Shown one piece after another: positions 3,899 through 52,700 of a stretch of DNA of 64,000 bases. The translations under genes and the position numbers were made by a program. The notes beneath the pieces are model-generated. The model was not told where the DNA came from, ran no database searches, and saw only the letters and a list, made by a program, of their open reading frames with translations. The stretch lies in the NCBI GenBank assembly GCA_976551045.1, contig CDPCPM010000022.1, forward strand, positions 18,600,001-18,664,000. Reading direction: 5' to 3'. The stretch comes from Glaucostegus cemiculus (taxonomy: Eukaryota). Each line of letters starts with the position of its first letter. Within the stretch, counting starts at the first letter, position 1.

Positions 3899-3976
3899 GA
3901 TGATTCTGGAAAAGGAAGGTCCCCGGTCTCTTTTCAGAGGGCTAGGACCAAATTTGATAGGCGTTGCCCCGTCCAG
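3899..3976 (+). CDS. slc25a36: Solute carrier family 25 member 36, internal coding exon (78 bp, probable exon 3)
   Basis: ttcttgcag|G...TCCAG|gtaagc; translates [26 protein letters not shown], matching SLC25A36/SLC25A33. Confidence 0.95.
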
Positions 3977-5964: not shown

Positions 5965-7203
5965 GTGAGTTTGCTCTTTCTACCTTGGGTAGGAAGAAGT
6001 AGAACTTTGGCCATCTGACCTGGGCCCAATGGGACCAGCTTCCACGATGTGCAGGTTTGAGGCAAGAGTATACTCTGATAAAGCTTTTGGACCAGGTCAG
6101 CTTCTGAGGCAGGATGGTTTGCATAGTAATACTGCATGTATCCTGTGATCTAAATTGATATTTGGTGTTTTGTCCTAAAACTGGTCAGAAGTGTTTAGGA
6201 TTGTTATAATTGTGGCAGTGGACAGGCAGGACAGATATGGGGGGATAATGGTGCTCAGTTTGGGTTCACTGGCTTGGTGGTGATCTCCTTTTAATTTTAC
6301 ACTTAAGCAGATGTCCAGGAAGAAGATCCCCTGAAAATGTTGAGGTTTTTGTTTGAAAGTTGAGCAACTGGAAATATCCCAGACTGTACAAATTTTATGT
6401 CCTACAAGTAATTCAAAGTAAGGACAACATTCTGCATTAGTTTGGCAAAGTGACTGCATGCCAGACATTAACTTGTTTGTTCTTTCCACAGATGCTGATT
6501 GACGTGAATATTTCCAGCATTCTGTTTTTAATAGTTATCGTTATGACAGCCATTATTGAGAAGCTGTCATCTGAATCAGTGGCCATAGTATGGCCAGCTT
6601 GATAAGGTAGCATACATCTGTCGGGGCTGGAAATCTAGCAAATGGCTTGGAAATAGGTGGCATGCACTTTGATAGATTAATGGAACTGATTTTTGATGTA
6701 CTAGAAGAGTACAGTAACTGGAAGAAAAATAGAGGGGGCGCGGTGTGTGGGAGAAGAGTACATTAAGAGAATTGGTATGTTCTGGATTAGGGAAAACTGT
6801 TACTGGTTCTTTAACCTATTTTGCAGTAACAGCTAAAGTTACTATTATCTACATCCAGAGCTTGATGGGATGGAGTAAGGGCAGACACAGATAATATCCT
6901 CCAAGTAGTTTATATATGGAAATCAACAATGCTCTCATGTTTTATGTATCTGTTTCTTGAGTGTTGTTTAATGGAAAATAATTCCTGAACAATAATACCA
7001 AAATGCATTTTATAAATTTAAAAAAAGCATGCCTCTTCTGCAAGGTAACATTACGTAGAAAAGGAATAAAATTGTAGACAGAATTTTTGTCTTCCTATGT
7101 AGAAAAGAGCAGGGTTACATTAGGTGTATGTGAATCCTTTAGTTAATGGATTTCACCTAAAACTAATTTTTCACTGGTTATGTGATCTTGCTCCTTCTTG
7201 TAG

Positions 7204-7304
7204 AGCTATTTACTTTGCTGCTTACTCCAGTTCTAAGGAAAAATTGAACACCGTCCTGGAGCCAGATTCAAGCCTAGTGCACATGCTCTCTGCTGGAATG
7301 GCAG
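7204..7304 (+). CDS. slc25a36: SLC25A36 internal coding exon (101 bp, probable exon 4)
   Basis: ctccttcttgtag|A...GCAG|gtaaga; [34 protein letters not shown]; phase matches flanking exons. Confidence 0.96.
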
Positions 7305-9806: not shown

Positions 9807-11471
9807 ATCAGAATCAGTTTTATTGTCACAACCATATACATACATAGTATGCATAGGAGCGAGATACCGTCCTCCTCAGGTGCTCGTCCCATAAAATAAC
9901 ATAACAACCAACAAAGAGACATACACACTTGACAGAATAAACATTACAAAACATTAGACATTAAAAGTTACGGAAGTTAAAATTAAATTAGTACGCAGAT
10001 TAAATTAAAAATGGCCGGTAAATAAATAAATAGTTATTAAAGTGAACGGGCTGGTGTCGGGCATTTAAAGTGTTGGTGCATTTCTGTGCACCTAGCATCT
10101 CTTAGTGTTAATAAAGGAAGATGGAGGGATGAGAGAGTTTGCAGTTCTGATGGCTTGTGGAAAGAAGCTATTATTCAGCCTGGTCGTTCTTGCCCTGATA
10201 CATGTAAGCCTGCTCCCTGAAAATTGTGAAGAGGTGGTGGGAGGGGTGAGAAGGGTCGGCCATTATGCTTTTGGTCTTCCTCACACAACGGTCTTTGTAT
10301 ATGTCTGCGAGGGATGGAAGCGAGACACCTATGATCCACTCCGCAGCCCTAACTATCTTCTGGAGGGACTTCCGCCCAGCAGCTGAGCAGCTTCCAAACC
10401 AAACAGTGATACATTGAGTTAGGATGCTCTCAATGGTCCTCCTAAAGAAGGTTTTCATGACGGAGGGATGGGGGGTACGCTTTCCTCAGTCTCCGCAGGA
10501 AGTAGAGGCGTTTCTGAGCTTTCTTTGTGAGGGCCGTAATGTTAGTGGACCAGGTCAGGTCGTCGGTGATGTGCACCCCCAGGAACTTGGTGCTGCGTAC
10601 TTGTTCCACAGCAGAACTGTTGATGGTCAGTGGGGTGTGCACACGGTGACCCCTCCTAAAACCCACTATCATCTCCTTGGTTTTATCCACATTCAAGGAG
10701 AGGTTGTTGTCATGGCACCACACGGCTAGTTGTTTCACCTCCTCTCTGTAGTCCGACTCATCGTCATTCGTGACAAGACCCACCACTGTCGTGTCATCGG
10801 CAAATTTAACAATGCGGTTGGAGCTGGATCTGGCCTCACAGTCGTGAGTCAACAAGGTGAACAGGAGCGGACTGAGCACACAGCCCTGTGGGGAGCCAGT
10901 GCTCAGTGTGATGGTGCTTGAGGTGTTTTCACCAATTTTGACTGACTACGGCCTGCAAGTGAGAAAATCCATTATCCAGTTGCAGAGAGGAGAGTTAATG
11001 CCCAGAGCGCTCAACTTCCTGATTAGCTGTTGCGGGATGATGGTATTGAAAGCGGAGCTGAAGTCGATGAATAGCAGTCGGCAGTATGAATCCTTCTTCT
11101 CTTAGTGATATAGTGCAGAGTGCATGGCAGAGGAGACTGCATCATCGGTGGACCTGTTTGCCCGATAAGCATACTGATGAGGATCCAAGGATGGGGGGAG
11201 GATGGCTCTAATGTGCTTCATAACTAGCCCCTCAAAGCATTTCATGACAATCGGTGTTAGAGCTATGGGACGGTAGTCATTCAGTCACATTGGAGGAGAC
11301 TTCTTAGGAACCGGTATGATGGTGGCAGATTTTAGGCACTTAGGAACAACCGCCTGCTGTAGGGAGATGTTGAAGTTGTCAGCCAGTACATCTTTAAGCT
11401 GGTCCGCACAGTCCCTAAGTATCCGCCCCGGTATGTTATCCGGTCCCGCAGCCTTCCGAGGGTTAACCTGT
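9807..11471 (-). mobile_element. Rex1/Babar-clade LINE, 5'-truncated and relatively young
   Basis: RT motifs [24 protein letters not shown] and LSPLLFTLLTHDC...IVKFADDTTVVGL; many CpGs retained; 3' (TTCTGA)n tail at 9807-9820; frameshifts and stops present. Confidence 0.92.
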
Positions 11472-19960: not shown

Positions 19961-20587
19961 ACCAACAGTTTTTTTCAGTTAGATGTGAAATTAGAATATT
20001 CAAAGCTCATGTAAATGAAAATTGCCTTGGATGACCAATTTAGTTTCCATCTTATGTTTCCCAGATTCTGAAAGAACAGTCGTTCCTCTAGCTGTATTCA
20101 TCAACTGTTTTTTTTTTTAAATTTAATGTTACAATCTGTGGCACAGGCACTTCTAAACTAAAGAAATATTAATCAGTTATTAGAACTTTAAATCCCTGGG
20201 AGAGTCATCTTGATCACCATTGGTAGCTGTATCATGAAAATAATTTTCTTCCTCTGCCAATGCCATTTAACTTTCTTCAAAACTTGGTCTGTTATGAGAA
20301 TAATGGGAGACTGGTGCCACGACAGAAAAATTTTAATTAAACTGTGGACCTGCTTATGCACCCATTTCTATTTTTATAATATCAGTTATACTCTGTATGC
20401 TATTTCAGCAAAATGAGGCATATGCCAGATTGGCAATTTGCATTAGTAATTGTATACTTCTCAATGTATAGGTTATTTGCAGTAGATATTAAAATGTGGA
20501 TTAACTTAAGCTTGAGCACATTATTAGAATCATCTCATGTGTTCAGTGTTCAAAGGCTTTGTTATCAGTATTGTTGTTTCTTCCCAG

Positions 20588-20654
20588 GCTTTACTGCTAT
20601 TACAGCGACCAATCCAATCTGGCTAATAAAGACGCGCTTGCAACTGGAAGCACG
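20588..20654 (+). CDS. slc25a36: SLC25A36 internal coding exon (67 bp, probable exon 5) with GC donor
   Basis: tttcttcccag|GC...GCACG|gcaagt; [22 protein letters not shown]; the GC donor preserves frame with the next exon. Confidence 0.93.
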
Positions 20655-21373
20655 GCAAGTAGATCTTGTTTAATCTATGGTATTTATGGGAGGGGGAAAT
20701 AGAATTTAAACTTAATGAGCAAATTATTTCTTTTTAAACAAATGTTGAAAGTTCCACAGTGGTAACAAATGAGACTATTTTCTAAAATGTGAATGGCTTG
20801 CTCTTTCAATGTATATCTCTACTAACCACATCCACTTAACATGCACACTAAGACATTAATAATTTTAATTTTTTAAATGTTTCTAAATTGAATGCTTAAA
20901 CTTTTTAATTTTTAAAATACTAAAGCACTTAAGATCTCTTGTAATTGAATGTTAAATTAATTACAAAAGTCCCTTGCAGCAATTTTTCCCCTCCATTGAA
21001 GTCAGTGGGGAAAGTAATCCCTACTGCAGAATTGGGGTATCACCACAGTATTGCTTCAAGAGAAACGGTGACAAACTGCTGACCAAATCTACGGGACTTC
21101 TAATATTTTCTTTTTATAGTGAAAACCACACGTTCCCACTATCACCACTGAAACAAAATTGAAAGGAATCTATTACCTTGCAGTTTACTGTATGAATTTT
21201 AGAGGATTGAGGATATGCTTTTCGTTTGTTTGGAATGCACACACAACCTGTTGAAGAATTAGCATCTATCTGTTGCTTCAATTTATGTTCTTTTATGCAT
21301 AGAATATTGAAGTTGGAACTATGTTATTGAAAAGTTGTACATTGTTCATTGGAATTGTCTCCTTTTTTTGTAG

Positions 21374-21663
21374 GAACCGAGGTGAAACACGGATGAGTGC
21401 TTTTGAATGTGTGAGAAGAGTGTATCGCTCCGATGGTGTTAGAGGCTTCTACAGGGGAATGTCGGCTTCCTATGCAGGCATCTCTGAGACTGTAATTCAT
21501 TTTGTAATTTATGAAAGCATAAAGCAGAGACTGATGCAATCCAAAACATCTCCAAACATGGATCCTGAAGAAGATTCTGTGAAATATGCTTCTGACTTTA
21601 TAGCCTTGATGTTAGCTGCTGCAACATCTAAAACATGTGCCACCAGTATAGCATATCCACACG
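21374..21663 (+). CDS. slc25a36: SLC25A36 internal coding exon (290 bp, probable exon 6)
   Basis: cctttttttgtag|G...CACG|gtgcgt; [17 protein letters not shown]...[27 protein letters not shown]...[16 protein letters not shown]. Confidence 0.97.
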
Positions 21664-22564
21664 GTGCGTATCTTCTATCCACTTATCAACGTGCTTTTCC
21701 ACAACTGTTCTAAATTTTTAAATTGTAAAAAGAGGCTTAATTGTAATTAAGCCTCAGATATGCATAATATATCTTGGCCAGTGAACCCTTGTTCATTGAT
21801 CTTTCTGACCTCTCTGCTCCCAGATTTTCCTTTACAGCTTGTAATTGGATTATCTTGATCAGAGTTTGAAACATGTTCATTCTGAACATAACATTCTGGC
21901 CCTAAAGCCTATTTGCCGAAAGCTAAATAAAGCCTGGAAATCCGAAATAAAACAGAAAATCCTGTACATATTCAGCACATTTGAAGCAAGAAACTTAGTT
22001 AATGCTTCAAGTTGATGGCTTTTCATTAGCAAGAAATGGGCATTATAAAATTCTGTCTTTTTGGAAAAAAAATGTTTTCAAAGATATTGCAATAAACTCC
22101 ATAGTTTTTAAAATGTTCTCAATTGCATTTAAGTTTATGTACAAACATGATTTAGGAGTAGGAAAAGGCCACTTAGCTCCACAAACCTGCTCTGTCACTT
22201 AATAAGATCCTGGTTGATTTATTTGTAACTTGAACTCCATATTTTCACTTACCTCCTTACTTATCAAAAATTTGCCTTCCCTGGCTTAAAATATTTAAAC
22301 ATTCAGGACCCAGAGAGAGAAATTATTTCCTCATCTGACTTCAGTGTAGGACCATTTAATTTATGAAGCTGTGAAATGTAGAGGTCCCAGCATAAATCCA
22401 CCACCAGTTGTATCTCATCAACCACAATAAAACTCACTTTATGCCAGCTGTTTCTTGGCAGCCAACCAATCTTCCATCTATATTTGTTTATCCAAATGTA
22501 ACATGGCCATCTCTGATTCCAATGGATGATGCTTAAAAGATTAGTCAATGAAAAGGTTTTTTAA

Positions 22565-22800
22565 TTCTCATCTTGATTTTCAGATCCCTGCAGGACCTTG
22601 TCCTCTCCATCTGTAAATCTGCTTCAGCTGAATTACCACTCAAAGTGCTTGTGCTCCTTCAATTCTGTCTGCTGGTGGATCTCAGATCATTTTTATCCCA
22701 TTGGTTCACCTTTTACTGCATTTTAAGTTGCCTAAATTCTAAATCAGGAATTCACTTCTAAAGTCAACCAACCTCTCCTCTTTGAGATGTTCCTTTTAAA
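22565..22800 (+). mobile_element. L2 LINE 3' fragment
   Basis: Similar to the reverse complement of 62490-62680 (ctccttcaattctg...ggaattc); L2-like C-terminal region. Confidence 0.5.
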
Positions 22801-23162
22801 ATTTGGTTTTTTTTGAGCAATCTCATCTCATTGTGAATTTGTGTCAATGAATGTTTGATGCTGTCAAAATCTCCTAAAAAAAAAAAAAAAACCCTTGACT
22901 TAAAATTATTACCTTTTTTATTTGACAAGAATATGTCACTGCAGATTTTTAATGGTTTTCTAAATCTTTTAGAATGTTGGTGTATCTAGAACTTGTGAAC
23001 TGTTCTGTAAAAGACATGGAAATGTAAAGGGAATCCTATTTCCAGTTTAATCTGCTGAAATGAAGATTTCAATGGCTGCAAAAATTCTAAATGTAATGAT
23101 ACTAGGTAATATTGTAAATGTATAGTTTTTAATAATTTAACAAAATATATTTTGTTTTACAG

Positions 23163-23356
23163 AAGTCATAAGAACTAGGCTACGTGAAGAAGGAACAAAA
23201 TACAGATCGTTTTTTCAGACATTTTCATTAGTAATATCTGAAGAAGGTTACAGATCACTTTATCGTGGTCTCATGACCCATCTGGTGAGACAGATTCCAA
23301 ACACTGCTATCATGATGGCCACCTATGAGCTTGTGGTCTACCTTCTCGATGGGTAA
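23163..23356 (+). CDS. slc25a36: SLC25A36 last coding exon to stop codon (194 bp coding)
   Basis: tttgttttacag|AA GTC...; [64 protein letters not shown]; the C-terminus ending VVYLLxG fits SLC25A36 better than SLC25A33. Confidence 0.96.
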
Positions 23357-26300
23357 AGAAAGTGCTGATTTATTGTGCAAACCTGGAAGACCAAAGGATT
23401 TGACTGGACCAGAAATCCCAGTAAAATTTAATGCTGAGAAAGATGAATCAATTGTGAAGATTTAAGCTGCTGTTAAGACAAAGAATGTCCAGTTCGTGAA
23501 AAGAACATGCTCTGATCAAGGAGCTGCCAGTACTCATGGCAATGACATAAAAAGATAGTCACCACTTAATGGGGAACATTTAACAAATCTAAATGTTATA
23601 TTATCCTGTTATCTTTCATTATAACATCATTTTTTTATCCTTGTAAGCTTTCAGTTTTAATTGGCAAGAGATCCCTGTAAAAAAAAAAACAAACAAATGT
23701 ATTGCCTTCAGCCATTTCACTGAACTGATGATGCAAAACTCTTTAACATGGGCATTCTCCCAGTTATCTGGGGAGCACTCCACTGAGCTGAAATCCTTGC
23801 CTGAATCATCTCCACAGATCAATTTCTAGAATAAAAACTTACAAAGGGGATTTAAGTTCATCCATTATTGAAGCCCATTAGATATTTCTTCATAGTTGTA
23901 TTTTTCAGTATTTATTTTACAATGCTCTGAATAAACCCAGAAATGCCTCAATTGCAATCTAGTATCCTCATGCAAGAGTTAAATCTTCGGGTGGGTGTGG
24001 GAATAGAACAATACAAGAACACCTAAACACATTATATCTTGCACAGTAACATCGTTGCTTTAAAAGCCAACAATGCAGAAATTTAATTAAACTTGAATTC
24101 ATCAAAAGAGGTGCAATTCTAAACTTTTTAGGATTTCTTCGCTTGACATCGAAGGTTTGACTAATGAATGTAAAGCAAGATAATTAAGATTGATTTGTTT
24201 ACTGTTCCCCTTTTTAAAACAATTGCATATACTTATTGTGGCATGTGTATAGGCTGTGATAATTGCTTCAAAAAAAGTATGATTACATTATGTTTATGTT
24301 TGTCCAATCAGCCTATAGATGCTTACAAAAAGAGATGCTAATGTTGGAAGAGGAAACAAAAATATGCAATACTCCACTATGTGAATTTTATGCTGTAACA
24401 AGTGGCTTTGTCTTGAACATTTTCTTCAAGCACTTTGTGGCCTTTCTACCTTGTTTTATTTTTTTTCCCTGATGGTTTTAGTTCTTAAATTATCGAAATG
24501 GCTAATAAATCATTCTCAAAAGTCTGTTCAGTATATAGTTAGTTTCTGTTATTGAAGTTGTGCATTTCACAGTATCGATTGCTTCTATATCCATAATTAT
24601 GTTGTGTAATAACAATTTGGGAACCTTAAGTTTTGTTGCTATCATTGCGTATTCTTAAGTATTTGCCACCTTCAGTTTTTGCATTTGTTGAATCCTGATG
24701 AACAAATTGTTATATCCAAAATGTATCTTGCCTAGTTTTTTTCTCTTATTGTACTTGGAAGAAGCGTTATGATCTCCCCATATTTCCATACACTACAACC
24801 TTGTTTATCCCAATCTTTTATGCGTAAACCAGATTCTGTTGACAGACAGACACAAACATGCCATTTTGATGGTTTAAGAAACAGGATGATAATCAGTCCA
24901 TAGTTTAGAGATAAAAAGGATGTGAAAGATGATAAAGATAAAAATGGATAATGAAGGATGTGAACACAGTTTATTTACAATTAAGACATTTTTCAGTGCA
25001 GCTGATGGAAGTGTGAGTGCAATTGGCAAGTTGTACTAGTGCAGAATAACTTAAAAAAAACACTGGCAAGACAGTATTAATGTGATTTTTTTACAGTTTA
25101 GTCATCTGCACCTATTTGTAATTGGGGGGGAAAAAATAACCATCCAAAATTTCTACAAAGCTCCTGTTGAGCTATAATGCCTAGCATTACTACATTTAAT
25201 TTTATTATTTTGCTATATTTCTCATTACTGAGTGTGTCATAACCTGGAATAGTCTCATCTGCACTTGAGCTGGGATTGTGCAGCTTCAACATTTTTTGTT
25301 TTAATACTATGGCAATGCTTGTAACTGTGATCACAAAAGCTACAGTATATCTAAATATGCCACCTTAGGCTGATGCTTTGCGAAAGCTCTGCTGTTCAAT
25401 TCCAGATCTAAAGTGTGCTTGATCCATTTTGCATAGTGCATTCTTGGGTGCAAGTAATGTATGTACATATTCTGTACAAAATCATTAATTCTTAAGTCTT
25501 CATGTGCTTTGGATGCTTCTACATTGCAGAGGATTAAAAACAAATTAGAAAATGCTACTATGGTTTCATTAGTATGCATTGGTATTTCTGCATGTCTTTT
25601 GAATCAGTATGATATCCTGTTGCAAAAGAATTTAAACAGCTAGACAAAAATGCATTCACAAGTTCACACACATGCCTCTCATCCAATTACTTTTTTCAGA
25701 TCCACCAGAATATGTACAATAAGTGTAAAGAGAAGGGCTTCAGTTTACACGACTTGGATTTAGTAACTCTAGTTTTTGATCATGCAGTACAAAGACTTCT
25801 CCCTGTGCTTGTGTTGAGTTGAATCTTAATAGATGTCTGCATAATGATGACCAAAGTAAAATGTCTACTGCTAAATCTTTCTCAGTTTAGTTTATTGGAC
25901 ATTTTTAGATTTTGTTTTATCTGAACAATTGCAAACAAATGAAATGCATTTGAACAATCAGGGTATCCCAAATTAATCCTTCAGCAGGATGGAACAAGGT
26001 TTAATATTTTTCTCAGTTGATGTGTCAAAATGAAGACTGACAATTTTTTTCATGTCAATCCAATCTATTGATGAACAGGTACAATCCATCTCAAACCTTT
26101 TATATTAGAATGTGTTGGAACAATGCTGTTACTAGTATGAGTATAAAATCAAGATGGAGGGGGATGGATGCTCTTGTAGGTTGCTTAAGCATTCCTTTGC
26201 TATACAACTTTTGACATGTAACATTTTTGGCTTTTCTGGATAAAGGCCAATTGCTAGACCTGAGCAGTATTTCCACCCCACTTGCTAGAAAGAGGTGGCT

Positions 26301-41967: not shown

Positions 41968-42293
41968 TTTCTTTTTCAATCTTTTTATTGATAACAAATC
42001 ATTACAGGTTAAGATATATAACAACAATGTTTACACATGTATTATATAAATATCAAATAAATCATAAATAATCATAAAAAAGCAATAAAATATGATGTAT
42101 ATAAAAGAAATAATTCCAACAATATCTCAGTTCATAAATGTAATATAAAAAATAAAAAAGAAAAAGATTTGTTATATAATTAGAAGAAAAAAAACAAAAC
42201 AAAAAAAAAACCCAAAACATTTTTTAAGAAAAAACAATTTTAAAAAATCATAATATAGAATAAATTGAACCAAAAGTCTTACCCCAGTAGCTC
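41968..42293 (-). mobile_element. L1-like LINE 3' tail (T-rich UTR with polyA signal)
   Basis: Reverse complement ends caataaaaagattgaaaaagaaa; extreme A bias on the + strand. Confidence 0.55.
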
Positions 42294-42300
42294 AAACCCA

Positions 42301-44869
42301 GTAGAAAAGGCATGTCAGAGTGACAATATTAAAATAATTATGGGTGACTTTAACATGAAGGTGGACTGGGAAACCCAGCAAGGCAGCAGTTCTCAGGAGA
42401 GCGAGTTTGTTGAATGTTTACGGGATGGCTTTTTGGAACAACTTGTTGATGAGCCCACCAGGGGATCGGCTGTTTTGGATTGGGTGTTGTGTAATGAACC
42501 AGAGGTGATTAGAGAACTAAGGGTAAAGGAACCATTAGGAACTAGTGACCATAATATGATTGAGTTCAGATTGAAATTTGAAAAGGAGAAGCTGATGACT
42601 GGAGTGTCAACATTTCAGTGGAACAAGGGGAATTACAGAAGGATGAGAGAAGAGTTGGCCCAGATTGATTGGAAATATAAGCTCGCTGGAGGGACGGCAG
42701 AACATAAATGGGTGGAATTTAAGCAAGTAATAAAGAAAATGCAGGACAGACACATTCCAAGAAAAAAAAAGGTTTTAAATGGAAAAAGGGCACAAATGTG
42801 GATAACGAGAGAGGTGAAAGCTAAAATAAGAGCAAAAGGGAGGGCATATAAGGTAGCAAGAAAAAGCGGAAAAACAGAAGACTGGGAAACTTTTAAGAAC
42901 CTACAGAAAGAAACTAAGAAGGTTATTAGAAAAGAAAAGAGAAATTATGAAATGAAATTGGCAGAAAACATTCAAAAGGATACTAAGAGTTTTTTTAAAT
43001 ATATAAGAAGCAAAAGAGAGACGCAGGTTGATATAGGACCGATAGAAAATGAGGCGGGAGAGATTATTATGGATGATAAAGAGATGGCGGAGGTGCTAAA
43101 TCAGTATTTTGCGTCGGTCTTCACAGTAGAAGATATTAACAATATACCGGTTAGTCAAGGGTCTCGAGGGACGGAATTAAGGACAGTTAAGGTTACGAGA
43201 GAGAAAGTGTTGGGGAAGCTAAATGGGTTAAAGACTGATAAGTCTCCGGGACCAGATGAGATACATCCCCGTGTACTGAAGGAAGTAGCTCTAGAAATAG
43301 TGGAGGCATTAGTGATAATTTTTCAGGAATCGATAGACGCTGGAGAGGTGCCGGAGGACTGGAGGGTCGTGAATGTAGTTCCATTGTATAAGAAAGGTGG
43401 GAGACAGCACAAAGGAAATTACAGACCTATCAGTCTTACATCTGTGGTGGGGAAGTTACTAGAGTCGATCCTTAAGGATGAGGTGATGGGATACATGGAG
43501 GTGCAAGGCAAGATAGGTCCTAGTCAACATGGGTTCGTGAAGGGAAGATCCTGCCTGACCAATTTATTGGAGTTTTTTTAAGAAATCTCATGCAGGGTGG
43601 ACAAGGGAGAGGTCGTAGATGTAGTGTATTTAGACTTTCAGAAGGCATTCGACAAGGTGCCGCACAAAAGACTAATTAGTAAGATGAGAGATCACGGAAT
43701 AACTGGCAGGATAACAGAATGGGTGGAGAGTTGGCTGGATGGCAGGAAACAGAGGGTGGGAATAAAAGGATCATGTTCTGGTTGGCTGCCGGTTACTAGT
43801 GGTGTTCCGCAGGGGTCGGTGTTGGGGCCCCTTCTTTTTACCTTGTATATTAATGATTTAGACGAAGGAGTTAATGGGTTTGTGGCCAAGTTTGCAGATG
43901 ACACTAAGATTGGGGGGGGGGGGAGTGGAGAGTATTGAGGAGACAGGAAAGTTACAGAGAGACTTGGATATTCTAGGAGAATGGGCGAAGAAATGGCAGA
44001 TGAGGTTCAACGTGGAAAAATGTGCAGTTGTACACTTCGGAAGTAGAAATGGAAGGGCAGACTATTATCTAGAAGGCGATAAAATTGGAAGCACAGAAGT
44101 ACAAAGGGACTTAGGGGTGCTCGTACAGGATAACCTAAAGGTTAACCGCCAGGTTGGATCAGCAGTAAGGAAAGCGAATGCTATGTTGGCATTTATTTCG
44201 AGGGGTATAGTATATAAAAGCAAGGAAGTGTTGATGAGGCTATACGGAGCACTGGTGAGGCCTCACTTGGAGTACTGTGTGCAGTTTTGGGCCCCATACC
44301 TTAGGAAGGATGTGCTGATGTTGGAGAGGGTTCAGAGGAGATTTACTAGGATGATTCCTGGGATGAAAAAGTTTACATATGATGAGCGACTGTCGTCACT
44401 TGGACTGTACTCGTTGGAGTACAGAAGAATGAGAGGGGACCTAATAGAAACGTACAAGATGTTGAAAGGAATGGACCAAGTGAATGTGGTCAAGCTGTTT
44501 CCCTTGGTGGGGGAATCCAGGACTAGAGGACACAAACTTAGAATTAGAGGAAGCAGGTTCAAAACAGAGATAAGGAGGAATTTCTTTAGCCAGAGGGTGG
44601 TGAACCTGTGGAACTCCTTACCACAGAAAGCAGTGGAAGCCAGATCATTGGGGATATTCAAGAAGGAAATAGATAGATATCTAATTGGTCAAGGTATCAA
44701 GGGATATGGAGATAAGGCAGGGATTTGGACTTAGAATAGTAGGTTTTTTTTTGTGTTTTTTTTTGTTTTTGTTTTCCTTAACCTCTTTTTTTCCCCACCC
44801 CCTTCCCTTTGGAACAGACTCGATGGGCCGACTGGCCTGCTTCTGCTCCATTATCTTGTGATCTTGTGA
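42301..44869 (+). mobile_element. Young CR1 LINE, 5'-truncated; ORF2 from endonuclease C-terminus through RT
   Basis: [69 protein letters not shown]; one nonsense codon (43579-43581) and one frameshift in a G12 run (43912-43923); (TCTTGTGA)2 end; TSD aaaccca (42294-42300 and 44869-44875). Confidence 0.97.
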
Positions 44870-49754: not shown

Positions 49755-52700
49755 CATTGGTATTGGTTTATTATTGTCCCTTGTACCAAGGTACAGTGAA
49801 AAACTTATCTTACATACCATTCATACAGATCAATTCATTACCCAGTGCATTGACATAGTACAGGGTAAAAACAATAACAGAATACAGAGTAAAGTGTCAC
49901 AGCTACAGAGGAAGTGCAGTGCAGGTGGACAATAAGGTGCAAGGTCATAACAAGGTAGACTGTGAGGTCAAGGGTCCATCTCATCGTATAAGGTCCATCT
50001 CATCGTATAGTCTTATCACAGTGGGATGGAAGCTGTCCTTGAGCCTGGTAGTATGTGCCCTCAGGCTCCTGTATCTTCTGCCTGATGGGAGAGGTGAGAT
50101 TAGAGAATGTCCTGGGTGGGTGGGACATTATGCTGGCTGCTTTCCCAAGGCAGCAAGATGTATAGACAGAACCCTTTGAGAGGAGGCTGGTTTCTGTGAT
50201 GTGCTGGGCTGTGTCCACAACCCTCTGTAGTTTCTTGCAGTGCATCGATAAAAGTTGGTGAGTGTCAAAGGGGACACTAAATTTCTTTAGCCTCCTGAGG
50301 AAGTAGCAGCACTGGTGAGCTTTCTTGGCCATAGGCAGTGTAACACTTGTCCCTACGTAGTTGGACCAGGACAGACTATTGGTGATGTTCACTCCTAGGA
50401 ACTTGAAGCTTTCAACCCTCGCAACCTCATCACCATTGATGTTGACAGGTGCATGTACGCTGCCCCCTTTCCTGAAGCTCTCTATCTCCTTCCTATACTC
50501 CGACATCACTATTTGAGATATGGCCCACTATGGTGGAATCATCGGCAAATTTGGAGATGGAGTTAGAGCAGAATCTGGCCATGCAGTCATGAGAGTATAG
50601 GGAGTAGAGTAGGGAGCTGAGGATGCAGCATTGTGGGGCACCAGTATTGAAAATAATTATGCTGGAGGTGTTGCTGCCTATCGTCACTGATTGCAGTCTG
50701 TTGGTCAGAAAGTCAAGGATCCAGTTACAGAGTAAGGTGTTGAGTCCCAGGTCTTGGAGTCTAGTGATGATTTTGCTTGGAATTATAGTATTGAAGACAG
50801 AGCTGTAGTCAATAAACAATAATCTAATGTAGGTGCCTCTACTGCCCAGATGCTCCAGAGATGAGTGTAGGGCCAGGGAGATGGCATCCACTGTAGACCT
50901 GTTTCGGAGGTAGACAAATTGCAGTGGGTCAAGGTTTTCCGGGAGGTTGGAGTTGATACATGCCATGACCATCCCCTTGAAGCATTTCATGATGGTGGAT
51001 GTTAGAGCCACTTGTCGGTAGTCATTAAGGCATGTTACCTTGTTTTTCTTAGCATGATAGTGGTCTTCTTAAAACAGATGGGAACATCAGAATGAAAAGG
51101 GAGGAGTTAAATATGTTTACAAATACCCCTAACAGCTGATCAGCACAATATCTGAGGACACAGCCAGGGACACCATCAGAGCCAGATGCTTTCCATGGGT
51201 TCACTCTCTGGAAGACTGATCTTACATCCTCAGTTCTGACCGCGGGTTCAGGTGCATTGGAGGCTGTCAGGGTGGGTGGTGACAAATCTATCCCTTTCTG
51301 TTCAAAACGTGCATAGAATGTGTTAAGCTCATCAGGATGGGATGCACGGTTGTTGGCGATGCTGCCTGACTTTGTTTTGTAGCCTGTTATAGCATGTAAG
51401 CCCTGCCACAACTGATGGCTGGTCTGGGACTCAATTTTGGACTGGTATCATCTCTTGGCAGCTCTGATAGCTTTACAGAGGTCGTATCTTGATTTCTTGT
51501 AAAGGTCAGGGTCACCTGATTGGACTGCAGCAGTCCTTGACTTCAGTAAGTAGTGGACCTCCCAGTTTATCCATGTGTTCCAGGTTGGGAACACCTGTAT
51601 TGTCCTCTTTGGTACACAGTGCTCAACACACTAGCTGATAAAGTCCATGATGGTGGTGAATACTCATCAAGGCTGGCAGCTGAGTCTTTGAACATGGACC
51701 AGTCTACTGACTCAAGGCAATCATGTAGAAGCATATCTATTTCCTCAGACTGGCACTGCATGACTCTCTGTACTGGATTCTCCCATTTCAGTTTCTGTTT
51801 GTATGCAGGGAGAAGGTGCACAGCCTGGTGGTCTGATTTCCCAAAGTGAGGGCTTGGTGTTGCTCGGAAGGCATCTTTGATGGTTGTACAGCAATGGTCA
51901 AAGGTGTTAGGGCTCCTGGTGGGACAGGAGATATGCTGGTAGTACTTTGGTAACACACTCCTGAAGTTGGCCTGGTTGAAGTCACCTGCAATAATGAAGA
52001 GGGCTTCAGGGTATCCTGGTTCAAGGCTGTTGACCACTGAGTATAGCCCATTGAGTGCAGACTTCATGACCATCTGGGGTGGGATGTAGACTGCCATCAG
52101 GATAGCTGAAGTGAACTCCTGTGGCAGGTAGTATGGTCGACACTTCACCGTTAGATATTCCAGGCTGGATGAGCAGGAGCTCGCCAGGACCGTCATATTC
52201 AAGCACCACGAGTTATTGATTAAGAAGCAGATCCCTCTGCCTCTAACTTTGCCTGAGGATGCTGTGCAGTTCATTCAGTGGATTGAGAAGCCCTCAGGTT
52301 GCATGGCACAGTCAGGTGGAGCAGGTTTAAGCCATGTTTCAGTGAGACAGAGCACACAGCAGTCCCTCAGTTCTCTTTGGTAGGCAAGTCTTGCCCTTAG
52401 TTCATTAACTTTGTTTTCAATGGCCTGGATGTTAGCTAGAAGTATGCTGAGGAGTAGGGTCTTGTATCCATGCTGTTTCAGCCTCACCAATGCTTCCGAG
52501 GTAAGTGGCTTCAACTCATCGGTCCTGGAAGTCCTGGAGTGGAGCCACCTGGTAAGTGATTGCTTAAGGACAGATCTGGAAGACCTGGAGCAGATTCACC
52601 TGGACAGGAAGGTAAGTGATTTCCTCTGGGTCGACCTTGAAAACCTGGAGTGGATTCACCTGGACTGGAAGGTAAGTGACAGTTTGAGAACAGACTTGGA

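Follow-up and report, generated by a model that had tools for sequence, protein, structure and literature searches.

A tandem CAG/AAG acceptor at the gate glutamate of a cartilaginous fish SLC25A36 gene very probably reflects splicing noise

Does a tandem splice acceptor in a carrier gene of Glaucostegus cemiculus provide a choice between two proteins, one of which lacks a residue of the matrix gate, or is the second acceptor site a by-product of the codons around it? The locus lies in a window of 64,000 nucleotides, the whole stretch of DNA that was analysed. This is a cartilaginous fish SLC25A36 gene, as the first-pass annotation had named it: by protein homology its nearest relatives are those of skates and rays (96% to Rhinoraja), the best matches carry the name SLC25A36 at 96-75%, and an SLC25A33-like paralogue is distinct. 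PF00153 matches occur at the locus, together with matches to AAC and UCP structures. Five coding exons were found within the window by tblastn, all on the plus strand. The first two, supported by tblastn and splice sites, read MILEKEG...VAPS (3899..3976, likely exon 3) and RAIYF...AGMA (7204..7304, likely exon 4, with its 3' end matched by loose read ends at 20585). They are followed by an exon with the second motif, PIWLIKTR, which has Trp at the acidic position and a GC donor after it (20588..20654; tblastn and an RNA junction), by the penultimate exon, which ends in Y-P-H plus a G, the first base of a Glu codon (21374..21663; tblastn and RNA depth), and by the last exon, whose coding part (23163..23356) encodes helices 5-6 and ends at the stop codon TAA (23354-23356), with read cover of the 3' UTR to at least 24400. 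Exons 1-2, to which motif 1 belongs, gave no tblastn match in the window. The three Px[DE]xx[KR] repeats of an SLC25 carrier are all present in close orthologues, and motifs 2 and 3 are in the window.

Other features of the window deserve mention in their own right. The acceptor of likely exon 4 (7201-7205) is TAG/AG, a two-base tandem of the same kind that a GAG codon in the last exon would create. The GC-AG intron at 20655-21373 (donor G/GCAAGT) has been removed in RNA of a relative, in one contig and in 24 reads from three runs; at its junction two residues are missing from Rhinoraja isoform X2, an absence that may reflect alternative splice site choice. Open frames at 10442-10945, 42259-44734, and 50000-52274 resemble pieces of LINE retrotransposon endonuclease and reverse transcriptase, a family to which we presume, from their motifs, that they belong.

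The last intron (21664..23162, plus strand; 1,499 nt, phase 1, GT...CAG) was removed in 28 reads and four contigs of relatives. The exon before it ends in TAT CCA CAC G at 21663, a GT donor starts at 21664, and the intron closes with ttttaCAG, in which the proximal acceptor CAG (23160..23162, plus strand) is the one used, according to RNA of relatives. AAG (23163..23165, plus strand) and then TC follow directly. There are thus two NAG in tandem at a 3' splice site that is used in relatives, as in any NAGNAG acceptor. The bases upstream (23125..23159, plus strand) are A/T-rich, contain no AG, and include a short T-rich tract; candidate branch motifs are predicted there at 23129 and 23137. The phase-1 intron splits the Glu codon between bases 1 and 2, with Val as the next residue, so that the distal NAG, for which no use is listed in relatives, consists of Glu codon bases 2-3 and Val codon base 1. 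Translation across the exon junction bears out the proposed in-frame deletion: the proximal AG gives Y-P-H-E-V-I-R, and the distal AG (23164-23165) gives Y-P-H-V-I-R with the frame kept. The affected Glu had been assigned to the acidic position of the third Px[DE]xx[KR] motif, and this assignment stands, as the residue is position 3 of PHEVIRTR and, in an alignment, falls in the P-x-D motif of UCP1.

Whether the distal AG is used can be judged from RNA of relatives; no RNA run is on record for Glaucostegus cemiculus itself. In three raw RNA runs of one close relative (18-24% of each run read; junctions with fewer than three reads not reported), all last-intron junction reads were proximal (17 + 9 + 2 = 28/28), and one contig run was likewise. 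Counted by junction, the distal joint 21663>23166 that the first-pass annotation had envisaged stands at 0 listed reads versus 28 for 21663>23163, and no joint that would end at 23165 is listed in the three raw runs or the contig run. The junction is reported as 21661 + T + 23162 in the relative's reads and contig; we read it as proximal, since His is encoded by CAT in the relative and the G can be placed on either side. The same C>T difference (CAC>CAT) was seen in the DNA of another relative. Contigs from three further organisms contain the proximal junction only (3/3; RNA-like contig runs overall, 4/4), with the proviso that contigs lose rare variants and that the tissues of the RNA runs are not given. 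A count of 0/28 allows distal use of up to about 10% (95% one-sided), and 6 hidden reads of 34 would be 18%. Set against the alternatively spliced class, in which the minor form reaches at least 5-10%, the locus shows 0/28 distal reads in the relative, with that upper bound of about 10%, and 4/70 ESTs in human.

These counts invite the reading that the distal AG is effectively never used in Glaucostegus cemiculus, and that Glu-less protein models elsewhere have their origin in rare reads or were projected from a human model. The 28 reads and the four contig runs are all in its favor, as is a genome search in which the carrier pair occupies 2 loci only (the second 57-70% identical) and no processed copy of SLC25A36 was found. 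Against it, the depth is too low to tell 0% from 2%, and real distal ESTs plus one read exist in human. We therefore regard this reading as improbable, at around one chance in ten.

The human site is already catalogued with low distal use; it is known, not new. In the supplementary rows of Sinha et al. 2009, human SLC25A36 exon 7 appears (as a TassDB entry) as a phase-1 CAGAAG with 66 proximal and 4 distal ESTs, predicted to be constitutive with a P(E) of 0.99, and with Illumina short reads at 6:0; a second, unlabelled triple (114, 1, 0.99) is read here as a proximal and distal count (PMC2699507). The expectation that an orthologue would have CAGAAG at this acceptor is thereby confirmed for human. 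The distal share is 5.7% by ESTs (4/70; CI 1.6-14%) and 0.9% by the second count (1/115; CI 0.02-4.8%), under the 10% filter of Sinha 2009. That human SLC25A36 has isoforms differing by one residue is supported at the transcript level by the 4 distal ESTs; the retrieved sequences included no human protein of 310 aa. A review table gives 2 mRNAs and 2 polypeptides for human SLC25A36 and leaves the difference between them unstated (PMC7504413), and our literature search found no publication on the function of a Glu-less SLC25A36 isoform.

Those 4 distal ESTs are also the starting point for the alternative of a conserved, regulated minor isoform, in which use of the distal AG is raised in some tissue or state to yield a smaller share of active carrier or a carrier with an altered gate. 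Precedent favors it to some extent: HAGHAG sites are a plausible class, 45% of them with some alternative use, a point on the side of the first-pass annotation (Hiller et al. 2008, PMC2279118), and PTBP2 offers an example with a short T-rich tract (PMC3250501). The human distal count of 1/115, the short reads at 0/6, and the relative's 0/28 all speak against it. The alternative NAGNAGs (minor use of at least 5%) listed by Bradley et al. 2012 number ~1,940 in human and ~1,760 in mouse; SLC25A12 and Slc25a13 appear, but SLC25A36 is in neither list, an absence that low coverage could also explain (PMC3250501). In these accounts acceptor preference runs CAG>TAG>AAG>GAG and the upstream AG is favored (PMC2699507, PMC3250501), so that CAGAAG predicts proximal use, PTBP2 being the exception (Bradley et al. 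2012, PMC3250501). According to Mironov et al. 2021, just 20% of minor tandem sites are above noise, and tandem sites that reach significance are over-represented in disordered regions, not in helices such as the one affected here (PMC8055015). A row for SLC25A36 is absent from 9 small supplement files of Mironov 2021 and from 11 supplement files of Hiller 2008. The proposal of a real splice choice consequently finds little backing, with distal use unseen in relatives, at 1-6% in human, and the site missing from tissue-level lists.

Conservation of the tandem might seem a stronger argument for regulation. The CAGAAG hexamer is common to this gene, human SLC25A36, and a fish paralogue, and the same acceptor in a paralogue does favor a regulated isoform. 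However, the second AG is forced by the protein. All 8 of 8 Glu-Val codon pairs with a phase-1 intron leave a second AG at +2 or +3: GAA places it at +3, in frame, and GAG at +2, out of frame. Val is next to Glu in 387/389 Glu-bearing homologues, and GAA accounts for 10/12 Glu codons in the three exons counted. Because the split Glu codon plus Val forces the second AG and GAA is common, conservation of CAGAAG says little, and its sharing across vertebrates needs no selection for a minor isoform. Given the protein and the intron position, the tandem AG is no more than chance. Among 289 pyrimidine-rich YAG sites in the window, NAG comes next in 17 and AAG in 7, and CAGAAG has 1,288 occurrences among 10,740 human NAGNAG acceptors (supplementary file, PMC2699507). 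We accordingly rejected CAGAAG conservation as evidence of function, since the second AG follows from the Glu-Val codons and the intron phase; of the suggestion that the site is conserved across jawed vertebrates, the presence of CAGAAG in human survives, and its value as a sign of function does not. Also against the regulated reading, the intron of a close relative has indels just upstream of the acceptor, at 23136 and 23146. Over 23096-23400, DNA of a close relative shows 7 differing letters and 4 gap letters.

The paralogue (contig C259:3424845-3424849, minus strand), which from its sequence is probably SLC25A33-like, has the same phase-1 intron, of ~2.08 kb, and CAG AAG before the Val codon. 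Human SLC25A33 and SLC25A36 are reported to have all intron positions in common (PMC10027655).

Glu-less models do exist in other vertebrates, as had been anticipated. We retrieved 571 homologous proteins and set aside 20 without the Y-P-H stretch. In the 551 scored, a sample biased toward cluster representatives with no cluster contributing more than 15 members, the Glu is present in 536 and missing from 7; 8 give other readings. The 7 are isoform-2 or X2 models from Echeneis (both paralogues), Nerophis, Diretmus, Lepidogalaxias, Centroberyx, and the gelada, that is, six teleost models (five species) and one primate. Their occurrence in 6 species favors a regulated isoform. The reading in which the distal AG is never used gains, for its part, from the 0/25 Glu-less among chondrichthyan entries (22 with Glu, 3 with a different C-terminus) and from there being no Logan-only protein among the 7. 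A junction-focused protein search returned no new Glu-less representatives beyond five already found.

Two further patterns appeared among the homologues. Two Marmota models have a residue inserted at the same junction (Y-P-H-A-E-V), which suggests a lineage-specific upstream NAG. In reptiles (three lizard pairs and one turtle pair), two SLC25A36 isoforms of equal length (313 aa) are annotated each time, hinting at mutually exclusive exons.

What would a carrier without this Glu be able to do? The deletion turns P-H-E-V-I-R-T-R into P-H-V-I-R-T-R-L, with Val at motif position 3 and Thr at 6, and puts the Arg of motif 3 at position 5 instead of 6; what remains of helix 5 would be rotated by one residue. 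Simple charge removal was rejected as a description of the deletion, the motif's Arg being displaced too. Yeast Ndt1p has Trp in motif 2 like SLC25A36, and its exchange activity is reported to fall to <10% when either the H5 Glu or the H5 Arg is replaced by cysteine, with 22% kept in a double mutant of the H5-H1 pair (PMC9104175). The same study describes some M-gate salt bridges as non-essential, a point in favor of the regulated isoform (PMC9104175). Because the deletion shifts the motif's Arg as well, an inactive carrier seems likelier than a leaky one, and the likeliest fate of the Glu-less product would be inactivity or degradation. Predicted structures had a mean pLDDT of 37 for a Glu-containing orthologue and 42 for a Glu-less orthologue, too poor for comparison.

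We conclude that this is very probably a tandem CAG/AAG acceptor whose first AG is used and whose second is a by-product of the Glu-Val codons, subject to occasional slippage of the spliceosome, and hence splicing noise. The spliceosome would take the first, stronger CAG nearly always, as the literature and the reads suggest, and AAG by a rare slip. Since no synonymous change would remove the second AG (GAA placing it at +3 in frame, GAG at +2 out of frame), it could persist unselected. The minor mRNA is in frame and would be translated; loss of the Glu would remove the acid at motif position 3 and shift the Arg, depriving the matrix gate of its H5 contacts, and the resulting protein would likely be inactive or degraded. 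Slippage might thus yield a probably inactive carrier at a level of a few percent at most. The noise reading must accommodate the low depth of reads that come from a relative, a human EST share (5.7%) that is not negligible, the Glu-less models in five teleost species and a primate, and the ~50:50 use of CAGAAG in PTBP2. A conserved, regulated minor isoform we nonetheless hold to be quite unlikely, in part because the conservation of its motif is forced. Least probable of all is the broader idea that both pyrimidine-carrier paralogues of jawed vertebrates keep a 3-nt switch removing the helix-5 gate Glu, with its use raised in certain tissues or states so as to throttle mitochondrial nucleotide import or uncouple it.

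The locus is an example of a protein-forced tandem acceptor: whichever codon encodes the Glu, a competing AG lies no more than three bases away, so that finding such a motif conserved does not prove that it has a function. The 7 Glu-less SLC25A36 models retrieved from public protein sets are likely poor templates for cloning or modelling. Were regulated use true, a splice switch acting directly on a carrier gate would be of real interest.

Among known systems, human SLC25A36 exon 7 is the closest, with the same last intron, phase 1, CAGAAG, upstream His codon plus G, and Glu; it differs in its 4/70 distal ESTs, whereas the low-depth data of the fish relatives show none. Proximal-major CAGAAG NAGNAGs, as described in two surveys (PMC3250501, PMC2699507), are alike in having CAG first, AAG second, and the proximal site dominant. 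In SLC25A36, by contrast, the codon that would be skipped encodes a conserved gate residue within a helix, and the minor product is for that reason likely more damaging than most. The CAGAAG of PTBP2, as presented by Bradley et al. 2012, resembles this site in its hexamer, its short T-rich tract, the single charged residue in a folded domain, and its deep conservation, but both PTBP2 sites are used about equally (5:6 reads), unlike those of human SLC25A36 (6:0, 114:1). Within the SLC25A33/SLC25A36/Rim2 pyrimidine nucleotide carriers (PF00153), the fish gene is an SLC25A36 orthologue with the motifs PLEVVK, PIWLIK, and PHEVIR, and its major product is not unusual.
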